Below the pieces are notes generated by a model. It saw only the letters and a list, made by a program, of their open reading frames with translations, ran no database searches and had not been told where the DNA came from. From the UHGV virus genome UHGV-1828728: a stretch of 39,345 nt of DNA; one strand, written 5' to 3'. Below are positions 4,548-16,713 of this stretch, in pieces; position 1 is the first letter of the stretch, and each line of letters starts with the position of its first letter. Source of the DNA: a virus. Both the position numbers and the translations under genes were made by a program.

Positions 4548-7500
4548 ATGAACAAGCTATCTATGGGGGTGTTTCGCTGTTCAAGTGTCAGCGAAATATT
4601 GAAATACATTAGTGCAATAACATCTCACCGAGCGCCGATTAGATACGGCGTGGAAAAGGTGGAAGGCAAAAGCTATGACCGACTACGCCGGGAGGCGAAT
4701 CAGAAGGCGATAGATTTGCTTAATTCGCTGGTGGACGGCGCGACACTGACAGATGAACAGCGCCAGATCCTGGCTGGGTACACCGGCGAAGGCGGCATTG
4801 GCGGGTCCGTCTCCGAATATTACACACCAAAGCCGATCGCTGAAGGTGTCTGGGAGATCATGAAGCTCTACGGCGCGGACGTAGGTAACACTCTGGAACC
4901 ATCGGCGGGAACCGGCGTTTTTAATGAGACAAAACCGGTTGGTACGGTGATGACCGCGACTGAGATCAGCAGTGTTTCCGGTCGTATAAACCAGCTGTTG
5001 CACCCGGAAGACAGCGTACAGATTTCTCCGTTCGAACAACTGGCTGTAAGCACGCCTAACGATTCATTCGACCATGTTGTGGGTAACGTTCCGTTCGGTG
5101 GTCGTGATAACACACGCAACATCGATAAGCCTTACGCAGAAGAAACGGACATGGGTTCTTACTTCATGCTCCGCATGCTGGACAAGATAAAGCCAGGCGG
5201 ATTCATGTGCGTGATTGTGCCGCCGTCCATTGTTTCAGGTTCAAACATGAAGCGGTTACGCCTGCGCCTATCACGGAAAGCTGAATTTCTTGGTGCCCAC
5301 CGCTTGCCTACCGGTACTTTTGACGCAAACGGGACCAGTACAGTTGTTGATGTGGTGCTGATGCGCAAACATCCGGCAGAGATGGCTGAGAAAATCCCCC
5401 TGGTGGATGAAAGCACTCTCGAATCGGCAAATGTGCTTTGGCCAACGTTTATTTCTGGCAAGTGGTTTGAAAAGGACGGCCGCCGGTTTGTTCATGGCAC
5501 CCAGGAAAAGGGCTTCCAGGGGCGTATTGAGGTTCGTGCCGACGGTCAGATTGATAACCAGGCTCTTAAAGCGAAGCTGATTCATCGTTTCGAAAGCCGT
5601 ATCGACTGGTCTTTGCTCGATATGGCTGAACCGTCACCGACCGCAGACGTTGTTGGTGAAGGGGAAATGCGCCTGATTAATGGCGTATGGCAAAAATATG
5701 CTGGTGGTCGCTGGATTGAAGCTGATGCCGGGAAGGAACTTAAGATCGATGCTGCCAGTTATGGCGCGGATAGCTGGGAGGCTCTTCAGCGTAACCTGAC
5801 TACAACAGAAGGCCGTCTCGGCATGACATTTACCCAGATGGCAAATGTCCGCGATAAGTACACCACATCAATCAGCGACGATATGGTGCAGCTGGTGGAC
5901 TGGATTAACAGCCAGCCTGAAAAATACCGTGAACGCTTGTATCGCGGGGCGATGATTGGCCGGATGTTAATTGAATATCAGGACATGAAGGCCGCCGGGC
6001 ATAGTGCTGAACAAATCGAACAGCAGCGCCTTTCTCTGGTATCCCGTTTGCAGGCAGAGATTGACCGTTTTGGTAACCCCGGTCGCGGTCCGATAGCGAA
6101 ATTGTCGGGGAGCGGTGCGCGCGCCTGGTTTGCTTTCCGTGGTGCAATTAAGCTGGATGGCACTATTTCTGACGAGCTGACAGGGAAGCTGGTTACGCAT
6201 GATTCCAGCGCAAGTTATGACTCCACCAGCTATCAGGACACCCTGCGTTATCTCTATAGCGATCTCACCCGCGATCCAATCCAGCTCGATGATTTCCGCC
6301 TTGCGTTTACCGGCGAACTGCCAGCCAGTGATGAAGAGTTGCTTAATTTATTGGCCAGCACCCCCAGCGGCGACATTAACGAGATAGTGGCTCCAAAACA
6401 GGAATTCCTCGCCACACTCCCCGACGGTCCAGTAAAGAACAACGTCCTTAATCAGCTGGCAGCTATCGAAGAGAAGCGCATCAAGACGCCAGCAGAGAAT
6501 ATCCGGTTTAAGCTCAATAGCCGTTGGTTCGACCGTTCCGTCATTCTGGAATTTTTGCAGGAAAACGGCTATCCGGATCTGCGCTATGTGCAGTCAGTGC
6601 AGCTGGAAGGCGACGAAATGGTTTCTGACACCTATCACGGTGGTGATGGTCTGTTCGTCGGGCACCGATACGGTGTCGTCCAGCGCAAGGATAAAGAAAC
6701 AGGTGAGATTCGCTACGAGTGGGACCGTAAATCAGGTGAAAACGCGACCGGGTTCCCGGCACAGCTGGAAAAGTATCTCAATGGTGCGCGTATCGGTGGC
6801 AAAGATAGCGCGACGGCGAACGGCTACCGCGAGCAGATGGCACTGCTTGAGGACCAGTTCAATAAGTGGATCAAGACGCACGATCGCTACGATGAGCTGG
6901 TTGCCAAATACAACGATGTGTTCAATAGCAATATCCCGTATGAACACTCTGGCGATCCGCTTGGGTTGAAGGGATTAAGCGGTAAGCGCCAGCCATTTGA
7001 TTACCAGAATAGCGAGGTGCGCCGACTGTCCGAAGATGGGCGCGGCATCCTGGGCTTCGGCACCGGGCTGGGTAAAACCACGACCGCGCTGGCGCTTGAG
7101 GCGTTCAACTATGAGAACGGTCGCTCCACCCGTACTGCGTATGTAGTGCCTAAATCAGTGCTGGAAAATTGGTATTACGAAGCAAAAGAATTCCTGAGTG
7201 AAGAGGCATTCAGTAACTACTTGTTCGTCGGTCTTGATGTGCTGATGGATGGCGATCAGATTCGCCAGGTGCCGGTGCTCAATGAGAACGGTAAACCTGT
7301 TCTTGGTACTGATGGCACTCCAGTTATGCGCGATGCTCTTAAGCTGGCAGATGAAGCCACTATCACGGCGCGGATGAACGCGATCCCGCACTCAAATTAC
7401 CGTGCAGTCGTGTTTACCAAAGAACAATACGCCCGCATTCCGCTACGTGATGACACCGTAGATGAGCATGCACAAGACATGCTTTATGACTTCGTTGCCG

Positions 7501-10500
7501 CCGGGCGCGTAGCCAGCGCAATGGACTCCGACTCCCACCGCAAAGAGGCGGCGCGTCGCCGGGTATTGTCGGAGTATTCAGATACCGGTACCGAAAAAGC
7601 AGAGAAGTATCCGTACTTTGAGGATATGGGCTTCGACAGCGTGATTGCTGACGAAGGCCACAACTACCGCAATAGCTATAAAAATGGTCGCGAAGCGTCA
7701 CAGCTGGCCTATCTGCCCACCAGCGCGGTGGCGCAATCGGCGCGAGATATGGCAATCAAAAACGCGTACTTGATGAAAAAGAATGGCGGGCGCGGACCGG
7801 TTCTCCTGACTGCAACACCAGTCGTTAACACCCCGATCGATGCATACAACATGCTTTCTCATGTTCTGCCGAAGGAATACTGGCAGAAGATGGGGATCTA
7901 CAGTCCTGATGACTTCGTAAAATTCTTCGGCAAGACCAGGCTGGAAACGGTACAGAAAATCAGCGGCGAAGTTGAAGAAAAAATGGCGCTGGTGGGTTTT
8001 GAAAACCTTGATGCGCTGCGCGGCATATTCCATCGCTGGACAACGCTTAAAACAGCGGAAGACGTTAAGGATACCGTGGAGATCCCGGAACTGGACGAAC
8101 ACCAGCAGGATGCACCACTTACTGAAGAACAACTGGCGGCGTATGAAGAATTGCGTCAGCAGGCGGAAGCGGCGGCCAAAGCCAACAATGGTGTAACGAC
8201 CTCGGTCAATGAAGACGGCGTGATTGAGCACGAGAAAGCCCGTCCGATCTTCTCAATAATCAGGGATATGGACCGCGTATGTACTGACATGGACCTGTAC
8301 TATCGCCGGATCACCTATCGTTTCCTGCCGGAGTACGCCGATGCGGTGCAGCAGCTGGCAGACAGTTTGCCTAAACAAGCCACCAGCGAAGACGACGACA
8401 GTGATGATTCAATCACGCAGCAATCGCAATACTCCCTGATAGATAAGGGCGAGTTTATTCAGTTGCAGGTTCCGGAAGCGTTCGAGCAGGAAGTGAATAA
8501 GCGCCTGGCCAGGTTTGGCATTGACGAACAGACCGTAACTCACCCCGTTACGCCCAAATACGCGAAGCTGATTGCCACGCTGAAGGAGTTTTTCCCGGAA
8601 GGGAAGCAAATCATCTTCACCGATGAAAAAACGCAGCACCAGAAGCTCAAGCGCATTATCTGCAATGCTCTTAACCTTGAACCTTCAAAGGTGGGGATAC
8701 TGAATGCTCAGACGGTTGCCGAGGCAGGTAAAACCGGTAAGAAACTGAAAGCGGTTAAACCGCCGAAAGAGTTACCGGATGAACCAACAGATGCACAGAT
8801 AGCGAAATACAACGAGCAAATGGCTCTGTATGACGCCTATATCGCGCAGCAAAATGAAATGTCGTTGGGCGGTCTGGAAAAGATTGCAGCCGACTTCCAG
8901 GAGGGCCGGACTCCGATCATCATCTGCAACAAAAAGGCAGAGGTGGGTATCAACCTGCATCGAGGAACGACTGACATCCATCATCTGACGTTGCCATGGA
9001 CTCCAGCCAGTATTGCGCAACGAAACGGTCGCGGTGCCCGAGTTGGCTCCAACCGTGCAAGCGTTCGCGTTCACTACTACTGCGGCAAGGGTTCTTTCGA
9101 TGAATACCGACTGAAGACGCTGAAGCGTAAAGCAGGCTGGATCTCCGATATCCTCCGTTCAGATAAGTCAGAAATGGAGAACGCCGACGCCAACGATATG
9201 ATCGAAATGCAGATGTATACCGCTAAGGATGATGGCGAACGTCTGGCAATGATGCAGGTTCAAATGGATAAGGCGAAAGCCGCGCAACGCGCTCGCCAGA
9301 AAGAACAGGCTACTATCGACCTTCAGAACTACATCAAGGCGCAGCACGCAGCTGGTGAGGATGTGGAGGTGCTTACCGCTGAATTAGAGCGAAGCAAAGC
9401 GGAACTTGAAAAGACCACCGCCGACGTCGCCAAATTCAAACAGGCGGTAATGGCCAAAGCAGCTGATAACGCAGACTGGAAAGCCCGCTGGGGTAGCGTC
9501 CATCACACAGACCGTACGTTGTTAGCACAGTATCGCGCGTCGTTGAAAAGCGCCATTCAGCGCAAGGCTAATATCTCTCAGGCCATCTCCCGCTATGAGA
9601 AATTATTGAACCGTACTCAGAAGGCCGCGACGGATATCAAACGCCTGCGCCCGCTGGTGGAGGATGCAATAAATAAAGGCATTCTGGATGTTGATCCTGA
9701 TCTGGTTAACCATGCGAATGAGTTCCTTGTTATCGGCGATCGCTCATGGCGTGTAGGCCAATACTATGATTGTGCCGGTGATATCGTTCGCATTAAGTCG
9801 CTGGACTTCGACAGCCAGCGCGCAGACGTGGAGATCATCTTTACCTTCAAAGGCACCAAATCGGGTAACTGGGATGTGAAGACGCTGGATAAACAGGTTG
9901 ATGTAACTCCCGATGAAGATGCTGTTATGCAGAAAATCAGTGGTGGCGTCTCCATCGCCGGGATTAACGACATCATTTCCTGTGACGATTTCTACCGTTT
10001 CCAGCAGCGCGGCATGATCAAAATCACTGACTCATACGGCGTTCAGACTACAGAGTCAGGCTATAGCATCGATTTTGTTGGTACCTATACGGACCCACTG
10101 AAGCATGCGGTTTACCCGGATCGCCGTGACGGCGCGCTGAAGTCGTCAATTGCAAAATGGGTGCTTGGTATGATGTCGGAAGGGAATAACCGCCAGATCC
10201 GTTCGGCAGAAACATTCCTGGTTGAACTGTTTGGCTCCAATTATGGCGATGTAATCGCGTCATACGGAGATACGCTATCCCCTGAAGCAATTCAGGAGAA
10301 AATAGCGGATGCGATCGCCAGAATGCCGGAAAAAACAAGCCAGGGGGCTACTCGTAACGGGGATTCTGAACTTGAAGTCACCAATGCCATTTTCGGTACC
10401 AATGAGTTCCGGGCGTCAGATTATGAGATCACCACAGCACAGTTTGGCACCATTGGCATTTACAGCAATAAAGCCGAGATCAAGCAGGCAATGGACGCAG

Positions 10501-11264
10501 CAAGCGCGCGCATCGCAGCAGAACGGGAAGCCAATCTGAATCATGCAGTCGCCGCGCTGACTCAATCGTGGGTAACAGCAATCAGGGAGGCCGCCACCAC
10601 AGGGAAAATCACACCTGCAATAGCGGATGTCGTAAACGACGGCTCTAAATTTATGGATGCCTATCAAATGGATGCGGTGAAGTTGCCATCAGCCTATGGT
10701 CAACTCAGCTATCGCATGACCTACAACCTGGTATCAATGTTTTCCGACCTTGCCATCCTTGGGCTGGTGGATCTTAACGAGGTTACGCCGGAATTGCTCA
10801 GCATGCGCAAGAATCATGTGGAGATATTGCAGAGAATTAACACGGTTCTTGCCGGGCGCACCGATGAAGAGAAACAGGCCGACGCTGATCGGATAAACCT
10901 AGCCCTTGGCAACATCACGGAGGAAGAGATTGCCGCCAGAAACGAGAAACAAGAAGAGTTATCATCAATACAGGGTGATGCCACCAGCATAGCTCAGTCT
11001 CTTGGTCTGAATTATCGCGTATCCACCGCCGACCTGAAGATGATGTACGCACCAAAATTCGCCGCTGGCGAGGTATTTGGGCTTCAGGAAGCCTCAGGCA
11101 TGAAAGGCGTTCTTTTCCGTGCGAAAGACGCAATCAAGGCGAAATTCGGCGCTCGCTGGCTGCCAGCGAAGGCGAAGAACAGCGATTTCCCGGGTAACTG
11201 GTGGATTATCGAGACAAAACACAACGTGGCGGACGTTCTGGCCGTCATCCAACAATACGCATAA
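4548..11264 (+). CDS. darB: DarB-like antirestriction protein (methyltransferase-helicase fusion)
   Basis: 2238-aa ORF with ATG and AAGGA RBS. N-terminal region has an N6-adenine methyltransferase-like motif (VGNVPFGG); central region has SF2 helicase motifs (GFGTGLGKTT Walker A, VIADEGHNYRN DEGH box). Size and architecture match P1 DarB from memory. Confidence 0.85.
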   Translation: MNKLSMGVFRCSSVSEILKYISAITSHRAPIRYGVEKVEGKSYDRLRREANQKAIDLLNSLVDGATLTDEQRQILAGYTGEGGIGGSVSEYYTPKPIAEGVWEIMKLYGADVGNTLEPSAGTGVFNETKPVGTVMTATEISSVSGRINQLLHPEDSVQISPFEQLAVSTPNDSFDHVVGNVPFGGRDNTRNIDKPYAEETDMGSYFMLRMLDKIKPGGFMCVIVPPSIVSGSNMKRLRLRLSRKAEFLGAHRLPTGTFDANGTSTVVDVVLMRKHPAEMAEKIPLVDESTLESANVLWPTFISGKWFEKDGRRFVHGTQEKGFQGRIEVRADGQIDNQALKAKLIHRFESRIDWSLLDMAEPSPTADVVGEGEMRLINGVWQKYAGGRWIEADAGKELKIDAASYGADSWEALQRNLTTTEGRLGMTFTQMANVRDKYTTSISDDMVQLVDWINSQPEKYRERLYRGAMIGRMLIEYQDMKAAGHSAEQIEQQRLSLVSRLQAEIDRFGNPGRGPIAKLSGSGARAWFAFRGAIKLDGTISDELTGKLVTHDSSASYDSTSYQDTLRYLYSDLTRDPIQLDDFRLAFTGELPASDEELLNLLASTPSGDINEIVAPKQEFLATLPDGPVKNNVLNQLAAIEEKRIKTPAENIRFKLNSRWFDRSVILEFLQENGYPDLRYVQSVQLEGDEMVSDTYHGGDGLFVGHRYGVVQRKDKETGEIRYEWDRKSGENATGFPAQLEKYLNGARIGGKDSATANGYREQMALLEDQFNKWIKTHDRYDELVAKYNDVFNSNIPYEHSGDPLGLKGLSGKRQPFDYQNSEVRRLSEDGRGILGFGTGLGKTTTALALEAFNYENGRSTRTAYVVPKSVLENWYYEAKEFLSEEAFSNYLFVGLDVLMDGDQIRQVPVLNENGKPVLGTDGTPVMRDALKLADEATITARMNAIPHSNYRAVVFTKEQYARIPLRDDTVDEHAQDMLYDFVAAGRVASAMDSDSHRKEAARRRVLSEYSDTGTEKAEKYPYFEDMGFDSVIADEGHNYRNSYKNGREASQLAYLPTSAVAQSARDMAIKNAYLMKKNGGRGPVLLTATPVVNTPIDAYNMLSHVLPKEYWQKMGIYSPDDFVKFFGKTRLETVQKISGEVEEKMALVGFENLDALRGIFHRWTTLKTAEDVKDTVEIPELDEHQQDAPLTEEQLAAYEELRQQAEAAAKANNGVTTSVNEDGVIEHEKARPIFSIIRDMDRVCTDMDLYYRRITYRFLPEYADAVQQLADSLPKQATSEDDDSDDSITQQSQYSLIDKGEFIQLQVPEAFEQEVNKRLARFGIDEQTVTHPVTPKYAKLIATLKEFFPEGKQIIFTDEKTQHQKLKRIICNALNLEPSKVGILNAQTVAEAGKTGKKLKAVKPPKELPDEPTDAQIAKYNEQMALYDAYIAQQNEMSLGGLEKIAADFQEGRTPIIICNKKAEVGINLHRGTTDIHHLTLPWTPASIAQRNGRGARVGSNRASVRVHYYCGKGSFDEYRLKTLKRKAGWISDILRSDKSEMENADANDMIEMQMYTAKDDGERLAMMQVQMDKAKAAQRARQKEQATIDLQNYIKAQHAAGEDVEVLTAELERSKAELEKTTADVAKFKQAVMAKAADNADWKARWGSVHHTDRTLLAQYRASLKSAIQRKANISQAISRYEKLLNRTQKAATDIKRLRPLVEDAINKGILDVDPDLVNHANEFLVIGDRSWRVGQYYDCAGDIVRIKSLDFDSQRADVEIIFTFKGTKSGNWDVKTLDKQVDVTPDEDAVMQKISGGVSIAGINDIISCDDFYRFQQRGMIKITDSYGVQTTESGYSIDFVGTYTDPLKHAVYPDRRDGALKSSIAKWVLGMMSEGNNRQIRSAETFLVELFGSNYGDVIASYGDTLSPEAIQEKIADAIARMPEKTSQGATRNGDSELEVTNAIFGTNEFRASDYEITTAQFGTIGIYSNKAEIKQAMDAASARIAAEREANLNHAVAALTQSWVTAIREAATTGKITPAIADVVNDGSKFMDAYQMDAVKLPSAYGQLSYRMTYNLVSMFSDLAILGLVDLNEVTPELLSMRKNHVEILQRINTVLAGRTDEEKQADADRINLALGNITEEEIAARNEKQEELSSIQGDATSIAQSLGLNYRVSTADLKMMYAPKFAAGEVFGLQEASGMKGVLFRAKDAIKAKFGARWLPAKAKNSDFPGNWWIIETKHNVADVLAVIQQYA

Positions 11265-11297
11265 CAGGAGCGCCCGGTTCGCCGGGCGTCGCATAAT

Positions 11298-11738
11298 ATG
11301 GCCACACTATCTGATACAATAAAACCGAATAAAACATATCTTGAGGCGGTACTCCGTACAGCGTTGTTAGGAAAGACAGAAGACGAATACGTTGATTTCT
11401 TCCTGTCAGGGCTACGCGGGCGATTACTGAAAAATCCCCGCCTGTACCGCAGCTATGGTCCATACTGGCCGGAAATTAAAAAATTATTACTGGAGCGCGG
11501 TTATGGTAATTTCGGTCGTCTCGTTGACCGTGACGTTCGCAAAATTTACCGTTATGACCGCCCGGCGCTAACACTCATAGCCGCGACGCTCTACAGCCAG
11601 GAGCGTTTTGATAATGGTCAGATATACTCAGCCTGGCATTTACTGCCAGTGCCTGAAGAAGTTGACGACCAGGACTATGAGTTTGAGTCTTACGATTTGG
11701 AAGTTGAAGCCTTGGCACAGGCTGGAGAGAAAACTTGA
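11298..11738 (+). CDS. ulx: Ulx-like protein (downstream of darB)
   Basis: 146-aa ORF directly after darB in the same orientation; named by P1 synteny (darB-ulx-lxc) only. No SD seen before the ATG. Confidence 0.5.
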   Translation: MATLSDTIKPNKTYLEAVLRTALLGKTEDEYVDFFLSGLRGRLLKNPRLYRSYGPYWPEIKKLLLERGYGNFGRLVDRDVRKIYRYDRPALTLIAATLYSQERFDNGQIYSAWHLLPVPEEVDDQDYEFESYDLEVEALAQAGEKT

Positions 11739-11983
11739 AAAAGCGATACTACACAGTAAAGCATGGGACGCTACGAGCATTACAAGAGTTTGCTGATAAG
11801 CATAACGTTGAGGTGCGCAGGGAAGGGGGAAGTAAAGCTCTGCGCATGTACCGCCCGGACGGGAAATGGCGTACGGTCGTCGATTTCAAAACTAACAGCG
11901 TTCCCCAGGGCGTCCGCGACCGGGCATTCGAAGAATGGGAGCAAATCATCATAGATAATGCATTGCTCCTGAATGCTGATTAA
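11735..11983 (+). CDS. lxc: Lxc-like small protein (C1 co-repressor in P1)
   Basis: 82-aa ORF with TTG start overlapping the ulx stop (TTGA); position and size fit P1 lxc from memory. Confidence 0.45.
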   Translation: MKKRYYTVKHGTLRALQEFADKHNVEVRREGGSKALRMYRPDGKWRTVVDFKTNSVPQGVRDRAFEEWEQIIIDNALLLNAD

Positions 11984-11987
11984 GTTT

Positions 11988-12020
11988 GTCTAGCCCGGTT
12001 AATACCGGGCTGGTTTAGAC
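11988..12020. terminator. hairpin terminator at the lxc / cassette junction
   Basis: Imperfect hairpin GTCTAGCCCGG-TTAATA-CCGGGCTGGTTTAGAC between convergent genes; T-richness after it is only moderate. Confidence 0.45.
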
Positions 12021-12041
12021 ATCTTAAGTGGGTGTTAATTT

Positions 12042-12551
12042 TTAATTATGGTTAATCATATCTAACAGTATTTTTAGCTTCCTGCATGTGTTATCAATAT
12101 CTTTACATAATATGACATCAAGGATGTTTGGTAGTCCTAATACCATATGAGAAATGAAACCCTCGCCAACTTGTAGATTATGGGTAGTCTCATCTGGATT
12201 CACGTATTCAATGGTTTTAGTTTTATTTATCCCATAATCTTTATAACAGATGATTACAGGAATGTTCTTCTGTTCAGCAATCTGCAACTCTATTCCTAGC
12301 CCTGTTGATGGAAAACTACATTCTGCAATTATTACATCAGATTTCTCAACCATATCTCTGTCCCAAATGTAACAAAGTCTAGATTTGTTACTTTCAGGGC
12401 GCTTTGATAATTCTGGGTCACTATTTATCAAAGCATATTTTACGTTGTTATTTTGAGATAAACCTTTTGCAAGGCTGTGAATCCAATTACTGTACTCATG
12501 GAAAATTTCCCTTGGAACATGAGTTAAAGCGCATGCGATATATATATTCAT
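12042..12551 (-). CDS. nucleoside 2-deoxyribosyltransferase-like (N-glycosidase fold) protein, cassette gene B
   Basis: 169 aa; N-terminal MNIYIACAL and internal DVIIAECSFPSTGLGIELQIAEQKNIPVI resemble the NDT/Rcl family strand and catalytic-Glu motif (GLGMELGYA in Lactobacillus NDT, from memory). ATG overlaps the stop of gene A (TAATG). AT-rich. Confidence 0.75.
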   Translation of the reverse strand: MNIYIACALTHVPREIFHEYSNWIHSLAKGLSQNNNVKYALINSDPELSKRPESNKSRLCYIWDRDMVEKSDVIIAECSFPSTGLGIELQIAEQKNIPVIICYKDYGINKTKTIEYVNPDETTHNLQVGEGFISHMVLGLPNILDVILCKDIDNTCRKLKILLDMINHN

Positions 12552-13591
12552 TAAGAAGCAGACCTTACGTTTGGGATAAGAAATTGGTGTCCAGTAATTT
12601 CAGATGAAATTGCATCTATAAACTGTGACGGAGATTGTTGAATAAATTCAGCAATAATCCAGTTTTCTTTTTCATTTAGTAACTGTCTTAGCTTAAGTGG
12701 GTCATACCGACATAGCTCACTTAATCGATGCATAGCTGCTAGGGTTATAACCAATGGCGATATTGAAACAGAAGTATGCTCAGATTGATTGTTTTTACGT
12801 TTGAGATACCAAAGAGTCTCTGCGCCATTGATATAGTAAAGATTTCTTCTTATTTTTTGATGAAATTCAGTTAATTGCGGCATGTTGGACGATTGATTTT
12901 CATTAAAATCAAGTAATGATTCTACTGATTTTATTTTGTACTTTTCTCTTTCAAACAATTCGAACGCTGGCGGTAGAATGTCGAAAACTGTGTCGAACCG
13001 AAAATCCTTGGATAAAATCGCAGTGAAAAACAGGCTATTGTCTGACTCATTCAAAACGAACTCAGCATCGATCAGTGGAATAAATATATCATCAGTTACA
13101 TCATAAGTAAGGCAATATGTACGATGAATATATGGCAATCCAGAAAAAAGGTTTTTTATATTGTACACCCCCTCATGAGAGGTGCCGTCAATATATTTTG
13201 AAAAAGACGGAAGTATACCCTCATTTTTTATTTTTACTTTTATATCAGATAAGTTATCAATTTGGGCTGCATTTTCACCCCTAGCAACACCATGATGCTG
13301 TTTGAAGTTTATATTGCGAGATGAAAGTAACGCCTTTACTGCATTCATGAATGAATAATAGTGCAAAAGTGGGGCTGATTGGTTGGGTAAACCATTGGCC
13401 GCCTGATTAAATACTTTTGCTTGCTCCCAATAAAAAAGAGCCTCATCTTTTTCGTTTCGCTTTAACCAGAGTTCGACAAAATCCCAATGACTGTATGTAA
13501 GTACATTCCTTGCGGTTAGGTCAGGGTTTAATGATGCTTTATGAGGCTTCATGACCTTGTTCCTAATTTTCAGCGGCTTAATATTCATCAT
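12551..13591 (-). CDS. hypothetical protein, cassette gene A (no recognisable domain)
   Basis: 346-aa ORF with tandem ATG start, GGAGG SD 9 nt upstream, sigma70-like promoter further upstream; no catalytic motif identifiable by eye. Confidence 0.75.
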   Translation of the reverse strand: MMNIKPLKIRNKVMKPHKASLNPDLTARNVLTYSHWDFVELWLKRNEKDEALFYWEQAKVFNQAANGLPNQSAPLLHYYSFMNAVKALLSSRNINFKQHHGVARGENAAQIDNLSDIKVKIKNEGILPSFSKYIDGTSHEGVYNIKNLFSGLPYIHRTYCLTYDVTDDIFIPLIDAEFVLNESDNSLFFTAILSKDFRFDTVFDILPPAFELFEREKYKIKSVESLLDFNENQSSNMPQLTEFHQKIRRNLYYINGAETLWYLKRKNNQSEHTSVSISPLVITLAAMHRLSELCRYDPLKLRQLLNEKENWIIAEFIQQSPSQFIDAISSEITGHQFLIPNVRSAS

Positions 13592-13620
13592 TGTAATAAT
13601 CCTCCACCCAAAGTTACTAG

Positions 13621-13649
13621 ATTGTAAAATATATATTTTTGTTCCACAA
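13621..13649 (-). promoter_or_regulatory. sigma70-like promoter of the AT-rich cassette
   Basis: Minus strand: -35 TTGTGG (13644-13649), 17-nt spacer, -10 TACAAT (13621-13626), about 30 nt upstream of the gene A ATG; no C1 operator-like sequence seen here. Confidence 0.45.
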
Positions 13650-13681
13650 CAAAAATCTCTATTGGCTACTGACGTAATTAA

Positions 13682-14323
13682 TTATAAATAGTTTTCTTTG
13701 CCGGTAAGTAAGCCTTGAGGAACTCGCTTGTCGGCTAGACATTGGGTTCCGCGAATTATGTTAATCAGAGGGCTTAGTAACGATGGTTCCTGGCGGGCCT
13801 CAACTTCTCCAGCCATTGCCCTGATGTAGTCGGCGCTTGCAACGTTGTTATATTCCGTTGCGAAGCAGCATAACAACGACAGAACGTGCTCTGTCGTTAT
13901 TTCGCTCCAGTTGATGTTGAAAAATTCATCGCCTTTTTTGTCGTGTTCGGAATCGAAGATGCTTTGGTGGAGGATGTATTTGCCGGATTCTTTGCGCGGT
14001 AACTTGATCGCTTTCTGGCGTTCCAGCTCCTTGTAAATCTGCATTGCTTCAATTAGTACCGGCCTGCCGTTCATGAAGGGATCGCGCAACCTTACACGCT
14101 GGCCAACTCGACCCGTAATAAAGCTGTTTTCCTCTTCCACCAGCACGATAAAACCCTTTTCCTCTTTTTCTCGCAATTCGCGCAGCAGCTGGAGTTCCAT
14201 ATCGCGGCGGCGTTCAGGGTAGCTGGTCCGCTCAGCCATTATCAGCTCATTGTTGATCCATGCGGCAGTCATTGACGCCGGTTTGCCGACGCTCATCGAA
14301 ACAACGCATATTTTCTTATCCAT
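13682..14323 (-). CDS. mat: Mat-like protein (P1 backbone gene adjacent to ref)
   Basis: 213-aa ORF from ATG 14323 (AGGGG SD; the track start 14350 is GTG); normal GC; sits next to ref as mat does in P1. Name by synteny only. Confidence 0.5.
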   Translation of the reverse strand: MDKKICVVSMSVGKPASMTAAWINNELIMAERTSYPERRRDMELQLLRELREKEEKGFIVLVEEENSFITGRVGQRVRLRDPFMNGRPVLIEAMQIYKELERQKAIKLPRKESGKYILHQSIFDSEHDKKGDEFFNINWSEITTEHVLSLLCCFATEYNNVASADYIRAMAGEVEARQEPSLLSPLINIIRGTQCLADKRVPQGLLTGKENYL

Positions 14324-14511
14324 AGCGCCCCTACAAAAAAGAAAAGCCACCAGCGGCGGCTTAGCAATACAACTGAAGGTAGCGCCCGGTACTCAGACTG
14401 TGCCGTCCATGGAATATTTGAAAAGGGATCCATCCGTACCGGGCATGTGATGATTCTGACTGAAGTCACTTGTCAGTTGTCAATTATTTCAGATTAAAAA
14501 TAATATATTTA

Positions 14512-15072
14512 TTAGTGCATGCTGTTTGCCATCTCATAGGCGTCAGCCAGCAACTCCATCTCTGACTTGTTCAGCAAGGTGAATTCTTTCTTGCCTCCAA
14601 CCACACCATCGGCATGAACAGGGACCAGCCAGGGGTATTTTTCTCTTACTTCAGCCGGTGCTGCATGCTGGTGGTGCCATCTACAAAGTGGCAATTGCTT
14701 TTTGTGACAACCAGGCGCGGTACGACCGGAGATATGGTGCAGAGACACCTCTTCAGATATTACTCCATGCATATAGCAGGCAATGCAGGGGAGAGCGCCA
14801 AGAGCATTGGCTATGCGCCGCTCCTCCGCCGTCGGTGTTCGTCCCTTCAAGCCACGAGATTTTATTTTTACCGCGCTTTTCCGCGTTTTGCTGGCTGGTG
14901 GGCGCTCTTTCTGTTTAGCGATACGGCGGTCGATAGTATTCCGCATTTTCTGATATTGAGATTCTCGCCAGGCCGGATCAGCCAACTTCTCCCGTTGCCG
15001 AGCGATCGCTCGTTCTCTGGCTGCCTTCTGCCACTTACGGTGCTGTTCAATTTTTTGTTCGATTGTTTTCAT
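14512..15072 (-). CDS. ref: Ref (recombination enhancement function, HNH-type endonuclease)
   Basis: 186-aa product starting MKTIEQKIEQHRKWQ..., Cys/His-rich C-terminal half; matches P1 Ref from memory. The track ORF extends upstream to 15177 but Ref begins at the internal ATG. Confidence 0.85.
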   Translation of the reverse strand: MKTIEQKIEQHRKWQKAARERAIARQREKLADPAWRESQYQKMRNTIDRRIAKQKERPPASKTRKSAVKIKSRGLKGRTPTAEERRIANALGALPCIACYMHGVISEEVSLHHISGRTAPGCHKKQLPLCRWHHQHAAPAEVREKYPWLVPVHADGVVGGKKEFTLLNKSEMELLADAYEMANSMH

Positions 15073-15077
15073 ATGGC

Positions 15078-15103
15078 AAAAAAAAGGCGGCCTGATGGCC
15101 GCC
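15078..15103 (-). terminator. terminator-like hairpin in the ref leader (possible attenuator)
   Basis: On the minus strand, stem GGCGGCC/GGCCGCC with loop ATCA followed by T8, ending 5 nt before the ref ATG. Confidence 0.4.
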
Positions 15104-15163
15104 AATGATGTCAAGGAGTTAAGTAATGGCAACGTCTTCGTAGTTGACAAAAACTGCGGCTCA

Positions 15164-15187
15164 ATTATAGCAATCAATTAGAGCAAT
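15164..15187 (-). promoter_or_regulatory. ref promoter with overlapping C1 operator
   Basis: Minus strand ATTGCTCTAATTGATTGC TATAAT: operator core (15171-15187) immediately upstream of a perfect -10 TATAAT (15164-15169). Confidence 0.5.
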
Positions 15188-15247
15188 GGTAGAGATTTTG
15201 TTTATCGCGAATCACATTTTTTCACTTCAGTACCTGTGTGCTATACT

Positions 15248-15321
15248 CCTTCTTGATTGATTGGATGCGGAATACAAACCCGCTCTTTTGTGCAGCCTGG
15301 CTCCTTGCCAGGCTTTTTTTT
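15248..15321 (+). ncRNA. candidate small RNA (promoter plus intrinsic terminator, no ORF)
   Basis: Extended -10 TGcTATACT (15239-15247), about 45 nt containing GATTGATTGG, then hairpin AGCCTGGC-TCCTT-GCCAGGCT (15294-15314) and T8. No coding potential on + strand. Existence as an RNA is inference. Confidence 0.25.
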
Positions 15322-15631
15322 ATTTCATCATGGAAGCTGTTAATGCTTTGGACCTTGCTGAACTGATTGAGAGGGCTTTGTCAACGTGCCCCAAAAATTC
15401 GCCAAACTCAGACATCACTTTAGCAAAACCGCGCCGTGCTTCTTCCTCGGTGGCATTCATCACGAAATGTTCAGCACTACGCATACTTCTGACAGGGAAC
15501 GCAACGGATATTGAGTCAATATCAGGCATTCTATCGCTCAGCTTTACAGTGACAATGACGGCTGGCGACTGAATATTAGTGCTCACTGACAGCACTACAT
15601 ATTTTCCGTCGATGTTGAAATTCTTTCTCAT
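15320..15631 (-). CDS. cra: Cra-like protein (cre-associated)
   Basis: 103-aa ORF between cre and ref with ATG and GGTGA SD; C1 operator-like site just upstream. Name by synteny. Confidence 0.6.
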   Translation of the reverse strand: MRKNFNIDGKYVVLSVSTNIQSPAVIVTVKLSDRMPDIDSISVAFPVRSMRSAEHFVMNATEEEARRGFAKVMSEFGEFLGHVDKALSISSARSKALTASMMK

Positions 15632-15647
15632 ATGTCACCATAAATAT

Positions 15648-15664
15648 CAAAGAATTAGAGCAAT
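15648..15664 (-). promoter_or_regulatory. C1 operator-like site upstream of cra
   Basis: Core ATTGCTCTAAT (reverse complement of 15654-15664); 13/17 to consensus. Confidence 0.45.
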
Positions 15665-15681
15665 CATTTACGCGTTAATGG

Positions 15682-16713
15682 CTAATCGCCATCTTCCAGC
15701 AGGCGCACCATTGCCCCTGTTTCACTATCCAGGTTACGGATATAGTTCATGACAATATTTACGTTGGTCCAGCCACCAGCTTGCATGATCTCCGGTATTG
15801 AAACTCCGGCGCGGGCCATATCTCGCGCGGCTCCGACACGGGCACTGTGTCCAGACCAGGCCAGGTACCTCTGACCAGAGTCATCCTTAGCCCCGTAAAT
15901 CAATCGGTGAGTTGCTTCAAAAATCCCTTCCAGGGCGCGAGTTGATAGCTGGCTGGTGGATGATGGCGAGGCAACACCATTTTTTCTGACCCGGCAAAAC
16001 AAGTAGTTATTCGGATCATCAGCCACACCAGAGACGGAAATCCATCGCTCGACCAGTTTAGTTACCCCCAGGCTAAGTGCCTTCTCTACACCTGCGGTGC
16101 TAACCAGCGTTTTCGTTCTGCCAATATGGATTAACATTCTCCCACCGTCAGTACGTGAGATATCTTTAACCCTGATCCTGGCAATTTCGGCTATACGTAA
16201 CAGGGTGTTATAAGCAATCCCCAGAAATGCCAGATTCCGTATATCCTGGCAGCGATCGCTATTTCCCATGAGTGAACGAACCTGGTCGAAATCAGTGCGT
16301 TCGAACGCCAGCGCCTGTTTTGCACGCTCACCGGCATCAACGTTTTCTTTTCGGATCCGTCGCATGACCAGTGAAACAGCATTGCTGTCACTTGGTCGTG
16401 GCAGCCCGGACCGACGATGAAGCATATTTAGCTGGCCCAAATGTTGCTGGATAGTTTTCACTGCCAGACCGCGCGCCTGAAGATATAGAAGATAATCGCG
16501 AACATCTTCAGGTTCTGCGGGAAACCATTTCCGGTTATTCAACTTGCACCATGCCGCCCATGACCGGCAAACGGACAGAAGCATTTTCCAGGTATGCTCA
16601 GAAAACGCCTGGCGATCCCTGAACATGTCCATCAGGTTCTTGCGAACCTCATCACTCGTTGCATCGACCGGTAATGCAGGCAAATTTTGGTGTACGGTCA
16701 GTAAATTGGACAT
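15682..16713 (-). CDS. cre: Cre tyrosine recombinase
   Basis: 343-aa product beginning MSNLLTVHQNLPALPVDATSDEVRKNLMDMFRDRQAFSEHTWKMLLSVCRSWAAWCKLNNRKWFPAEPEDVRDYLLYLQARGLAVKTIQQHLGQLNMLHRRSGLPRPSDSNAVSLVMRRIRKENVDAGERAKQALAFERTDFDQVRSLM and ending NIVMNYIRNLDSETGAMVRLLEDGD; matches canonical Cre from memory apart from a few substitutions. Confidence 0.97.
   Translation of the reverse strand: MSNLLTVHQNLPALPVDATSDEVRKNLMDMFRDRQAFSEHTWKMLLSVCRSWAAWCKLNNRKWFPAEPEDVRDYLLYLQARGLAVKTIQQHLGQLNMLHRRSGLPRPSDSNAVSLVMRRIRKENVDAGERAKQALAFERTDFDQVRSLMGNSDRCQDIRNLAFLGIAYNTLLRIAEIARIRVKDISRTDGGRMLIHIGRTKTLVSTAGVEKALSLGVTKLVERWISVSGVADDPNNYLFCRVRKNGVASPSSTSQLSTRALEGIFEATHRLIYGAKDDSGQRYLAWSGHSARVGAARDMARAGVSIPEIMQAGGWTNVNIVMNYIRNLDSETGAMVRLLEDGD

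Follow-up and report, generated by a model that had tools for sequence, protein, structure and literature searches.

The 90 nucleotides between mat and the first gene of a two-gene cargo cassette (positions 13592–13681, minus strand) in UHGV-1828728 carry a sigma-70-like promoter candidate and no recognisable C1 operator. The whole stretch analysed here (39,345 nucleotides; the window) was identified as a P1-like phage-plasmid, inverted with respect to the P1 reference, by megablast, the P1 annotation, and the list of open reading frames (ORFs). The cassette (1.7 kb, 11984–13681, minus strand) is an insert in the variable slot between lxc and mat and contains two minus-strand genes, designated here gene A and gene B; the 90-mer is the exact gap from the mat stop to the first ATG of gene A, with a GC (guanine plus cytosine) content of 29%. 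C1-independence of the cargo promoter is well supported by the sequence, and C1-independent expression of the cargo in the lysogen is, on balance, probable by analogy with CapRel of SJ46 and EcoP1I of P1. The analysis shows the sequence elements, the lack of an operator, the limits of the cassette, and the gene pair with its conservation; from these and from the precedents, we infer that the promoter fires, that it is independent of C1 in vivo, and that the cargo serves in defence.

The C1-controlled promoters of P1 (Oref/P2ref, Omat/Pmat, and the immC operators) are on the same replicon and are of the sigma-70 type, and their hexamers overlap or adjoin an asymmetric operator of 17 bp (consensus ATTGCTCTAATAAATTT); the nearest, Omat/Pmat, is located ca. 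830 bp upstream on the same strand. The operator core ATTGCTCTAAT occurred 13 times in the window at no more than one mismatch, compared with 0.92 expected by chance, and none of these occurrences was found between 4619 and 15163. We also scored the window with a 17-bp position weight matrix (PWM) trained on 12 of its operators. The training sites scored 20.6–26.6 bits and the weak, P1-annotated Omat (14505–14521) 11.2 bits, whereas the maximum was 4.6 bits in 13560–13720, including the 90-mer, and 7.1 bits across the whole cassette. The first-pass annotation of this stretch had reported no operator upstream of gene A, and the PWM bears this out. The sequence thus gives solid support to the absence of a C1 operator from the cargo promoter region.

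On the strand that codes for gene A (minus), the 90-mer contains a candidate −35, TTGTGG (13649–13644; three of six positions match TTGACA, with TTG kept), a 17-nt spacer (13643–13627), and a candidate −10, TACAAT (13626–13621; five of six, with the critical T1, A2, and T6 present). The predicted transcription start is at about A13614, which would give a 5′ untranslated region (UTR) of ca. 23 nt. A Shine-Dalgarno sequence, GGAGG (13605–13601), is located 9 nt before the first and 12 nt before the second of the tandem start codons ATGATG (13591–13586; ATG 13591–13589 and ATG 13588–13586). The presence of TTGTGG/17/TACAAT and GGAGG agrees with the first-pass annotation. In the haplotype with 96% identity (pTetA_020022), ATT replaces the first ATG, and RefSeq has a protein of 345 amino acids starting from the second ATG; therefore, ATG 13588 is probably the real start of gene A. 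In two plasmids, GGGGG is found in place of GGAGG.

The site was missing from the output of a consensus promoter and terminator scan of 11200–15800, in which at least four of six matches were needed in each hexamer. Therefore, we used shuffled sequences and a weighted sigma-70 PWM, built from textbook hexamer frequencies, on both strands of the whole window. TTGTGG-17-TACAAT scored 11.4 bits and ranked 12th among the distinct sigma-70 sites on the two strands of the 39-kb window, ahead of the annotated Pmat (10.9 bits). From Pmat to the start of gene A, it was the sole sigma-70-like site of at least 8.5 bits on the minus strand. No direct repeats were found in the 90-mer, no Dam (GATC) or LexA-box motif was seen in it by eye, and no Rfam family matched in or around it at E ≤ 1.

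Several points weigh against reading this site as a promoter that expresses the cargo constitutively in lysogens. Of 17 promoters annotated in bases 1–16000 of P1, only two have a C1 operator and 15 have none. A missing operator is the default; it is necessary for lysogenic expression but is not evidence of it, and the proposal that the absence signals such expression is not supported. The −35, with three of six matches, is under the four-of-six threshold of the consensus scan, which left the site unlisted. When the 90-mer was shuffled, 11.4 bits were reached in 9.9% of trials that kept its mononucleotide content and in 9.4% of those that kept its dinucleotide content, and several intragenic sigma-70 matches of the AT-rich cassette on the same strand are equally good. 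Eight haplotypes of the 90-mer, one of them 4% diverged, had 10 variable positions in 90 nt and none within the 12 hexamer positions, the hexamers, the 17-nt spacing, and ATG 13588 being invariant; since the chance probability of this is about 0.24, the invariance of the hexamers is uninformative on selection. The protein identity of relatives jumps from 99% to 60%, with no intermediates. Additionally, a non-random inverted repeat overlies the −35, and the cassette, with a GC content of 35%, is a typical H-NS target, making silencing possible. These points change two earlier descriptions. The promoter had been called good, which is appropriate to its rank in the window and its placement but not to a −35 of three of six and to a score that 9–10% of shuffles equal. 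Expression had been called constitutive, of which C1-independence stands by sequence; the term overlooks the inverted repeat, the H-NS-type GC content, and the fact that the cassette is co-oriented with mat, whose promoters are C1-controlled and Lpa-dependent. The promoter candidate is thus plausible and well placed, yet it is not statistically established, as its match is not beyond chance in AT-rich DNA.

Phylogenetic footprinting was also considered and rejected, because the relatives have either at least 96% DNA identity or at most 60% protein identity, and their upstream regions are accordingly near-identical or unalignable.

A second promoter candidate, CTTACC-16-TATAAT (13708–13681, minus strand; 8.4 bits), overlaps the mat stop. 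If this were the working promoter, the transcript would have a leader of ca. 83 nt containing the hairpin described below, and expression would still be C1-independent, as no operator is present there either. Its −10 (13686–13681) is a perfect TATAAT. In SJ46, the homologous position is that of the best CapRel promoter candidate (TTAACA-16-TATAAT, 13.5 bits), which likewise overlaps the mat stop and is within the 100–200 bp driving CapRel. However, the −35 CTTACC is degenerate (three of six, without TTG), the score is below the 11.4 bits of the proximal site, and the hairpin in the leader could attenuate transcription. In contrast to SJ46, the proximal site is the higher-scoring of the two candidates here, and a role of the upstream site as the working promoter appears quite improbable.

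An inverted repeat with perfect 9-bp arms and a loop of 4 nt, ATTTTTGTT-GTGG-AACAAAAAT (13656–13635, both strands), holds the −35 TTGTGG in its loop and left arm. The repeat is centred on this −35, and its arms can be lengthened to 16 nt at 88% complementarity, forming a quasi-palindrome (13628–13663). An equally long perfect repeat was obtained in only 0.5% of 90-mer shuffles (P = 0.005), and only eight such repeats, loxP among them, were found in the 39-kb window. The predicted RNA fold of the repeat was −6.4 kcal/mol for the core and −9.3 kcal/mol for the extended form. The 9-bp stem has one G-C pair, its tail is AUAUAUAUUUU, and the scan of 11200–15800 listed no terminator within the 90-mer. 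A hairpin was present just after the mat stop in every version of the slot, with unrelated sequences in P1, RCS47, SJ46, and the window: P1 has two strong hairpins (−27.5 kcal/mol together), RCS47 has one (−17.4 kcal/mol), and SJ46 has ATGGGTATG-N9-CATACCCAT (−17.3 kcal/mol). No comparable repeat was found upstream of the homologous cassettes outside P1 (E. coli and Yersinia). Since every slot version has a hairpin after mat and the homologous cassettes outside P1 have no such repeat, the most probable role of the inverted repeat is to end or insulate mat transcription, weakly in this allele, with the cargo promoter embedded in it.

Alternatively, ATTTTTGTT-GTGG-AACAAAAAT could be the operator of a dimeric host or plasmid regulator, and the promoter would then be C1-independent but regulated. 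The scarcity of perfect 9-bp repeats in the shuffles and in the window, the centring of the repeat exactly on the −35, and its extension to 16-nt arms are consistent with this. So are two plasmids, pRHB30-C17_3 and pRHB17-C14_2, in which two G-to-T changes (13659 and 13657) perfect the 16-nt arms, with a predicted RNA hairpin of −15.7 kcal/mol for the perfect palindrome allele compared with −9.3 kcal/mol. However, template-switch mutagenesis at quasi-palindromes also yields such palindrome-perfecting double changes, and the double change looks like a template-switch correction, although selection for a stronger hairpin is also possible. Neither cassette protein has a recognisable DNA-binding domain, neither a second copy of the repeat nor its half-site was found elsewhere in the window, and the homologous cassettes of E. 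coli and Yersinia lack such a repeat upstream. Additionally, the occurrence of unrelated hairpins after mat in every slot variant fits a terminator role better. Regulation through this repeat is thus improbable, and a weak terminator or insulator for mat is preferred.

mat (13682–14350, minus strand; stop codon 13684–13682) is located directly upstream of the cassette in the same orientation. Its C1 operator Omat, its C1-controlled promoter Pmat (14483–14453), and the box AAGTGACTT of its Lpa-dependent late promoter LPmat (14471–14463) are all on the minus strand and conserved from P1. A terminator-like hairpin with a T-run (14362–14335, minus strand), conserved in P1 and RCS47, lies between Pmat/LPmat and the mat ORF. 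Because Omat/Pmat is C1-controlled and this hairpin intervenes, little upstream transcription should enter the cassette in the lysogen; therefore, production of the cargo there would require a local promoter. Induction probably leads to some read-through from Pmat/LPmat, since the hairpin in the 90-mer is weak.

Conceivably, the local promoter has little activity in the lysogen, or is silenced there by a protein such as H-NS, and the operon is read mainly from Pmat/LPmat during lytic growth. The position of the cassette directly downstream of mat in the same orientation would allow this, as would the lack of a GC-rich terminator between the mat stop and gene A, where the hairpin is of −6.4 to −9.3 kcal/mol. 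The −35 with three of six matches and the score that is not significant against the local composition also fit a weak promoter. The GC content of the cassette (35%) and of the intergenic region (29%) fits silencing, the flanking backbone genes having 47–52% and the whole window 48%, and the control region of ref, close by, is known to be bound by H-NS (PMC4713147). However, the hairpin and T-run at 14362–14335 stand between Pmat/LPmat and mat, and the expression of CapRel, which is placed and oriented like the cassette, is driven by its native upstream DNA. The homologous pairs in chromosomal islands and a P2-like prophage have their own long AT-rich upstream regions and no mat, and a defence or addiction cargo made only in late lysis would presumably not benefit the lysogen. 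We regard this explanation as unlikely and favour a local promoter that is active in the lysogen.

CapRel of the P1-like phage-plasmid SJ46, a Salmonella phage, occupies the same lxc–mat slot in the same orientation directly downstream of mat as gene A. The first ca. 22 bp after the mat stop are common to SJ46 and the window, and the promoters are unalignable beyond. In both, a 9-bp perfect inverted repeat 20–25 nt after the mat stop is followed by sigma-70-like hexamers, and no C1 operator was found in the 217 nt upstream of CapRel. CapRel itself is a fused toxSAS toxin–antitoxin, whereas the cargo of the window is an unrelated pair of a YaaC family protein and a nucleoside 2-deoxyribosyltransferase (NDT)-like protein. 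Zhang et al. obtained expression of CapRel with 100–200 bp of its native upstream sequence, both in a pBR322 lacking a promoter and from one copy on the MG1655 chromosome, where no P1 genes were present (PMC9712102). The protein was detected and phage defence was seen from the native upstream DNA (PMC9712102). Expression and defence have thus been demonstrated for CapRel (PMC9712102), whereas both are predictions for the cassette of the window. The expression of CapRel without P1 factors is, by analogy, the strongest support for expression of the window's cargo in lysogens.

EcoP1I res/mod of P1 is in the same slot and has five annotated sigma-70 promoters, none with a C1 operator. P1 lysogens restrict incoming DNA, and EcoP1I is active in lysogens. 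Relative to the cassette, res/mod is inverted, so that it runs in the direction of lxc and converges on mat, and P2mod is located inside lxc; it is separated from mat by strong hairpins, and its length is ca. 6 kb compared with 1.7 kb.

Homology of the window to P1 stops at the mat stop, and homology to SJ46 stops ca. 22 bp further; since both end before the promoter, the promoter travels with the cassette. In megablast of 11000–15500, P1, P7, RCS47, SJ46, and relatives matched at 94–98% identity only on either side of the gap. The cassette occupies the interval from the lxc stop to the mat stop, where related phage-plasmids have other cargo or none. The slot holds res/mod (EcoP1I) in P1, CapRel in SJ46, and other genes in JL22 and Ro157c2YLVW, and is empty in RCS47. 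The cassette was found in 88 PLSDB plasmids, in 109 of 5426 complete E. coli genomes (ca. 2%), and in some Salmonella and Cronobacter. Nearly all copies were plasmid-borne and three were chromosomal, and the four copies whose flanks were inspected, one of them chromosomal, were all between lxc and mat. The 90-mer accompanied only this cassette, in 84 plasmids. Hence, the idea of the 90-mer as a shared promoter module was rejected, as it occurs only with the cassette and the SJ46 upstream region is alignable over ca. 22 bp only.

With moderate confidence, we propose that the 90-mer controls a self-contained operon of cargo genes within the lxc–mat slot. The mat stop would be followed by ca. 22 bp of SJ46-type backbone and then by the AT-rich inverted repeat insulating mat. 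The sigma-70 promoter TTGTGG-17-TACAAT, a 5′ UTR of ca. 23 nt, and a strong GGAGG would come next, leading into translationally coupled genes A and B, and the operon would end at a GC-rich hairpin in common with the convergent lxc. With no C1 operator near the promoter, transcription of the operon by host RNA polymerase is expected irrespective of C1, also in the plasmid-prophage state. After induction, extra transcription may enter from Pmat/LPmat.

Prophage morons, which are genes with their own promoter and terminator inserted between phage operons, resemble the cassette in being AT-rich inserts with their own promoter-like site and Shine-Dalgarno sequence and a hairpin at the far end. Unlike morons, the cassette has a weak upstream insulator, and its slot is recombination-prone and swaps whole cassettes at near-fixed boundaries. 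A cargo promoter without a repressor site is expected rather than surprising, and self-promoted cargo in a variable phage slot is of an already known kind. If the promoter fires in lysogens, hosts of these P1-like plasmids would continuously make an HEPN-fold protein and an NDT/DNPH1-like enzyme, and phage susceptibility, plasmid stability, or nucleotide metabolism could change. The cassette would also be the third example, after EcoP1I and CapRel, of the lxc–mat slot as a plug-in site for self-promoted cargo, and such cargo would escape the phage's own immunity circuit.

Gene A (12551–13591, minus strand) encodes 346 amino acids from the first ATG and belongs to the YaaC family, with a predicted HEPN-like fold. 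Its match to Pfam YaaC (PF14175) was 157.7 bits (gathering cut-off 27, E = 5.9e-46), and its structure model (predicted local distance difference test score, pLDDT, 91.5) suggests an HEPN-like fold. A conserved canonical Rx4-6H HEPN motif was not evident in the gene A family; the sole candidate motif ending beside an invariant His was RNINFKQH, and its Arg is not conserved. In the interior of gene A, strong sigma-70-like matches were observed at 12828–12856 (plus strand) and 12954–12928 (minus strand), scoring 12.7 and 12.0 bits, respectively. Spurious intragenic promoters of this kind are characteristic of acquired AT-rich DNA, and antisense RNA could arise from one of the two.

Gene B (12042–12551, minus strand) encodes 169 amino acids and is a relative of NDT and DNPH1 (Rcl). 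Its family profile matched Rcl/DNPH1 (E = 4.8e-5 to 3e-4), aligned across AExxxPSxGxGxEL, and within the catalytic-Glu motif PSxGxGxE, G84, G86, and E88 were invariant in 30 homologues. The single sequence scored below the Pfam gathering score (22.1 versus 28.8 bits). By these matches, gene B is distantly related to NDT and the DNPH1/Rcl N-hydrolases. In some E. coli contigs, gene B was called shorter (103 amino acids). The ATG of gene B overlaps the stop of gene A as TAATG; because of this overlap, one promoter would serve both genes.

The YaaC and NDT-like pair was adjacent in 38 of 44 loci across many phyla. The pair in an E. coli island (59–60% identity) adjoins genes for an integrase, BrxR, Dpd (DpdD), JetD, PLD, and a helicase, and the pair in Yersinia enterocolitica (59–60% identity) is within a P2-like prophage, between the regions of tail gene S and baseplate gene V. 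Neighbours across 34 loci included GajA, dGTPase, PDC-M19, PDC-M45, AriA, a Cap15 receptor domain, Mrr, and integrases. No match to PADLOC v2 was obtained for either protein at E ≤ 0.01, and none to PHROG or NCBIfam families. Searches of the literature for YaaC, for the protein accessions, and for transcriptomes of cassette-bearing P1-like lysogens returned nothing relevant. Gene B with its NDT/DNPH1 signature and gene A with its HEPN-like fold resemble NDT-like anti-phage effectors and HEPN abortive-infection proteins, respectively. The effector of Retron-Eco1/Ec86 is an example of such an NDT-like anti-phage protein; unlike that retron, the cassette has no reverse transcriptase or noncoding RNA (no match in Rfam). 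The gene pair looks like a defence system, and its earlier label as defence cargo is reasonable on these sequence features. Tentatively, and with somewhat less than even confidence, the pair may be a previously undescribed abortive-infection or toxin–antitoxin-like anti-phage system in which an HEPN-fold YaaC and an NDT/DNPH1-like nucleotide or NAD N-glycosidase are expressed constitutively and independently of C1, exchanged as a promoter-bearing module among P1-like plasmids, P2-like prophages, and chromosomal defence islands. The pair is widely conserved, no description of it was found, and it is a more interesting lead than the promoter. Six of the 44 full-length YaaC homologues, including those of Bacillus and Gottfriedia, had no NDT-like partner downstream, and the YaaC family also exists alone or with other partners.

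The first-pass annotation had also pointed to a sequence, AGTTACTAGA, overlapping the predicted +1 region, and this overlap was confirmed: on the plus strand, AGTTACTAGA (13612–13621) includes the final base of the −10 as well as the region of the predicted +1. It is included in AAGTTACTA-gattg-TAAAAT (13611–13630, plus strand), which looks like an Lpa late promoter and would fire antisense into mat. The features taken to define an Lpa late promoter were the 9-bp box AAGTGACTT with its centre at −22, a TAnnnT −10 that follows the box after exactly 4 nt, and the lack of a −35. In the annotated late promoters LPmat and LPpro, 4 nt separate the box from the −10. All five late-promoter-like sites of the window have a gap of 4 and a central G, and four of the five have TAnnnT, LPmat having CAGAAT. 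The plus-strand AAGTTACTA has a gap of 5 and a central T, and AGTTACTAGA was rejected as part of an Lpa late promoter on this geometry. On the minus strand, the box-like TAGTAACTT has TGGAGG at 4 nt, which is not a −10. Judged from the sequence, AGTTACTAGA and the late-promoter look-alike are probably due to chance.

On the lxc side of the cassette, the P1 annotation and the ORF list place darB (4548–11264), ulx (11298–11738), and lxc (11735–11983), all on the plus strand. A GC-rich hairpin (11990–12013, both strands) is located between the convergent lxc and gene B, at the end of both transcription units. On the mat side, ref (14512–15177), c8 (15320–15631), and cre (15682–16713) are on the minus strand. 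Near 14334, the window has a run of four G compared with five in P1 and RCS47 (region 14323–14433), and owing to this shorter run the P1-annotated mat ATG (14433 in the window) is out of frame. By the P1 annotation, the hairpin at 14362–14335 falls inside the 5′ portion of mat. This annotation may place the start of mat too far upstream, or attenuation may control mat.

A perfect ATTGCTCTAAT core (23.7 bits) was observed at 15654–15664 on the minus strand, between cre and c8. P1 c1.100 has ATTGCTATAAT at the corresponding place, which is not annotated as an operator. From these sequences, c8 may be under tighter C1 control in the plasmid of the window.

In pMB9366_2 (NZ_CP103510.1, an ST131 plasmid), only 107 bp of the lxc side of the cassette are left (window positions 11984–12090), the GC-rich hairpin included. 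IS1 adjoins this remnant and is followed by a helix-turn-helix regulator gene and capsule genes, and the cassette of pMB9366_2 is thus truncated by IS1.

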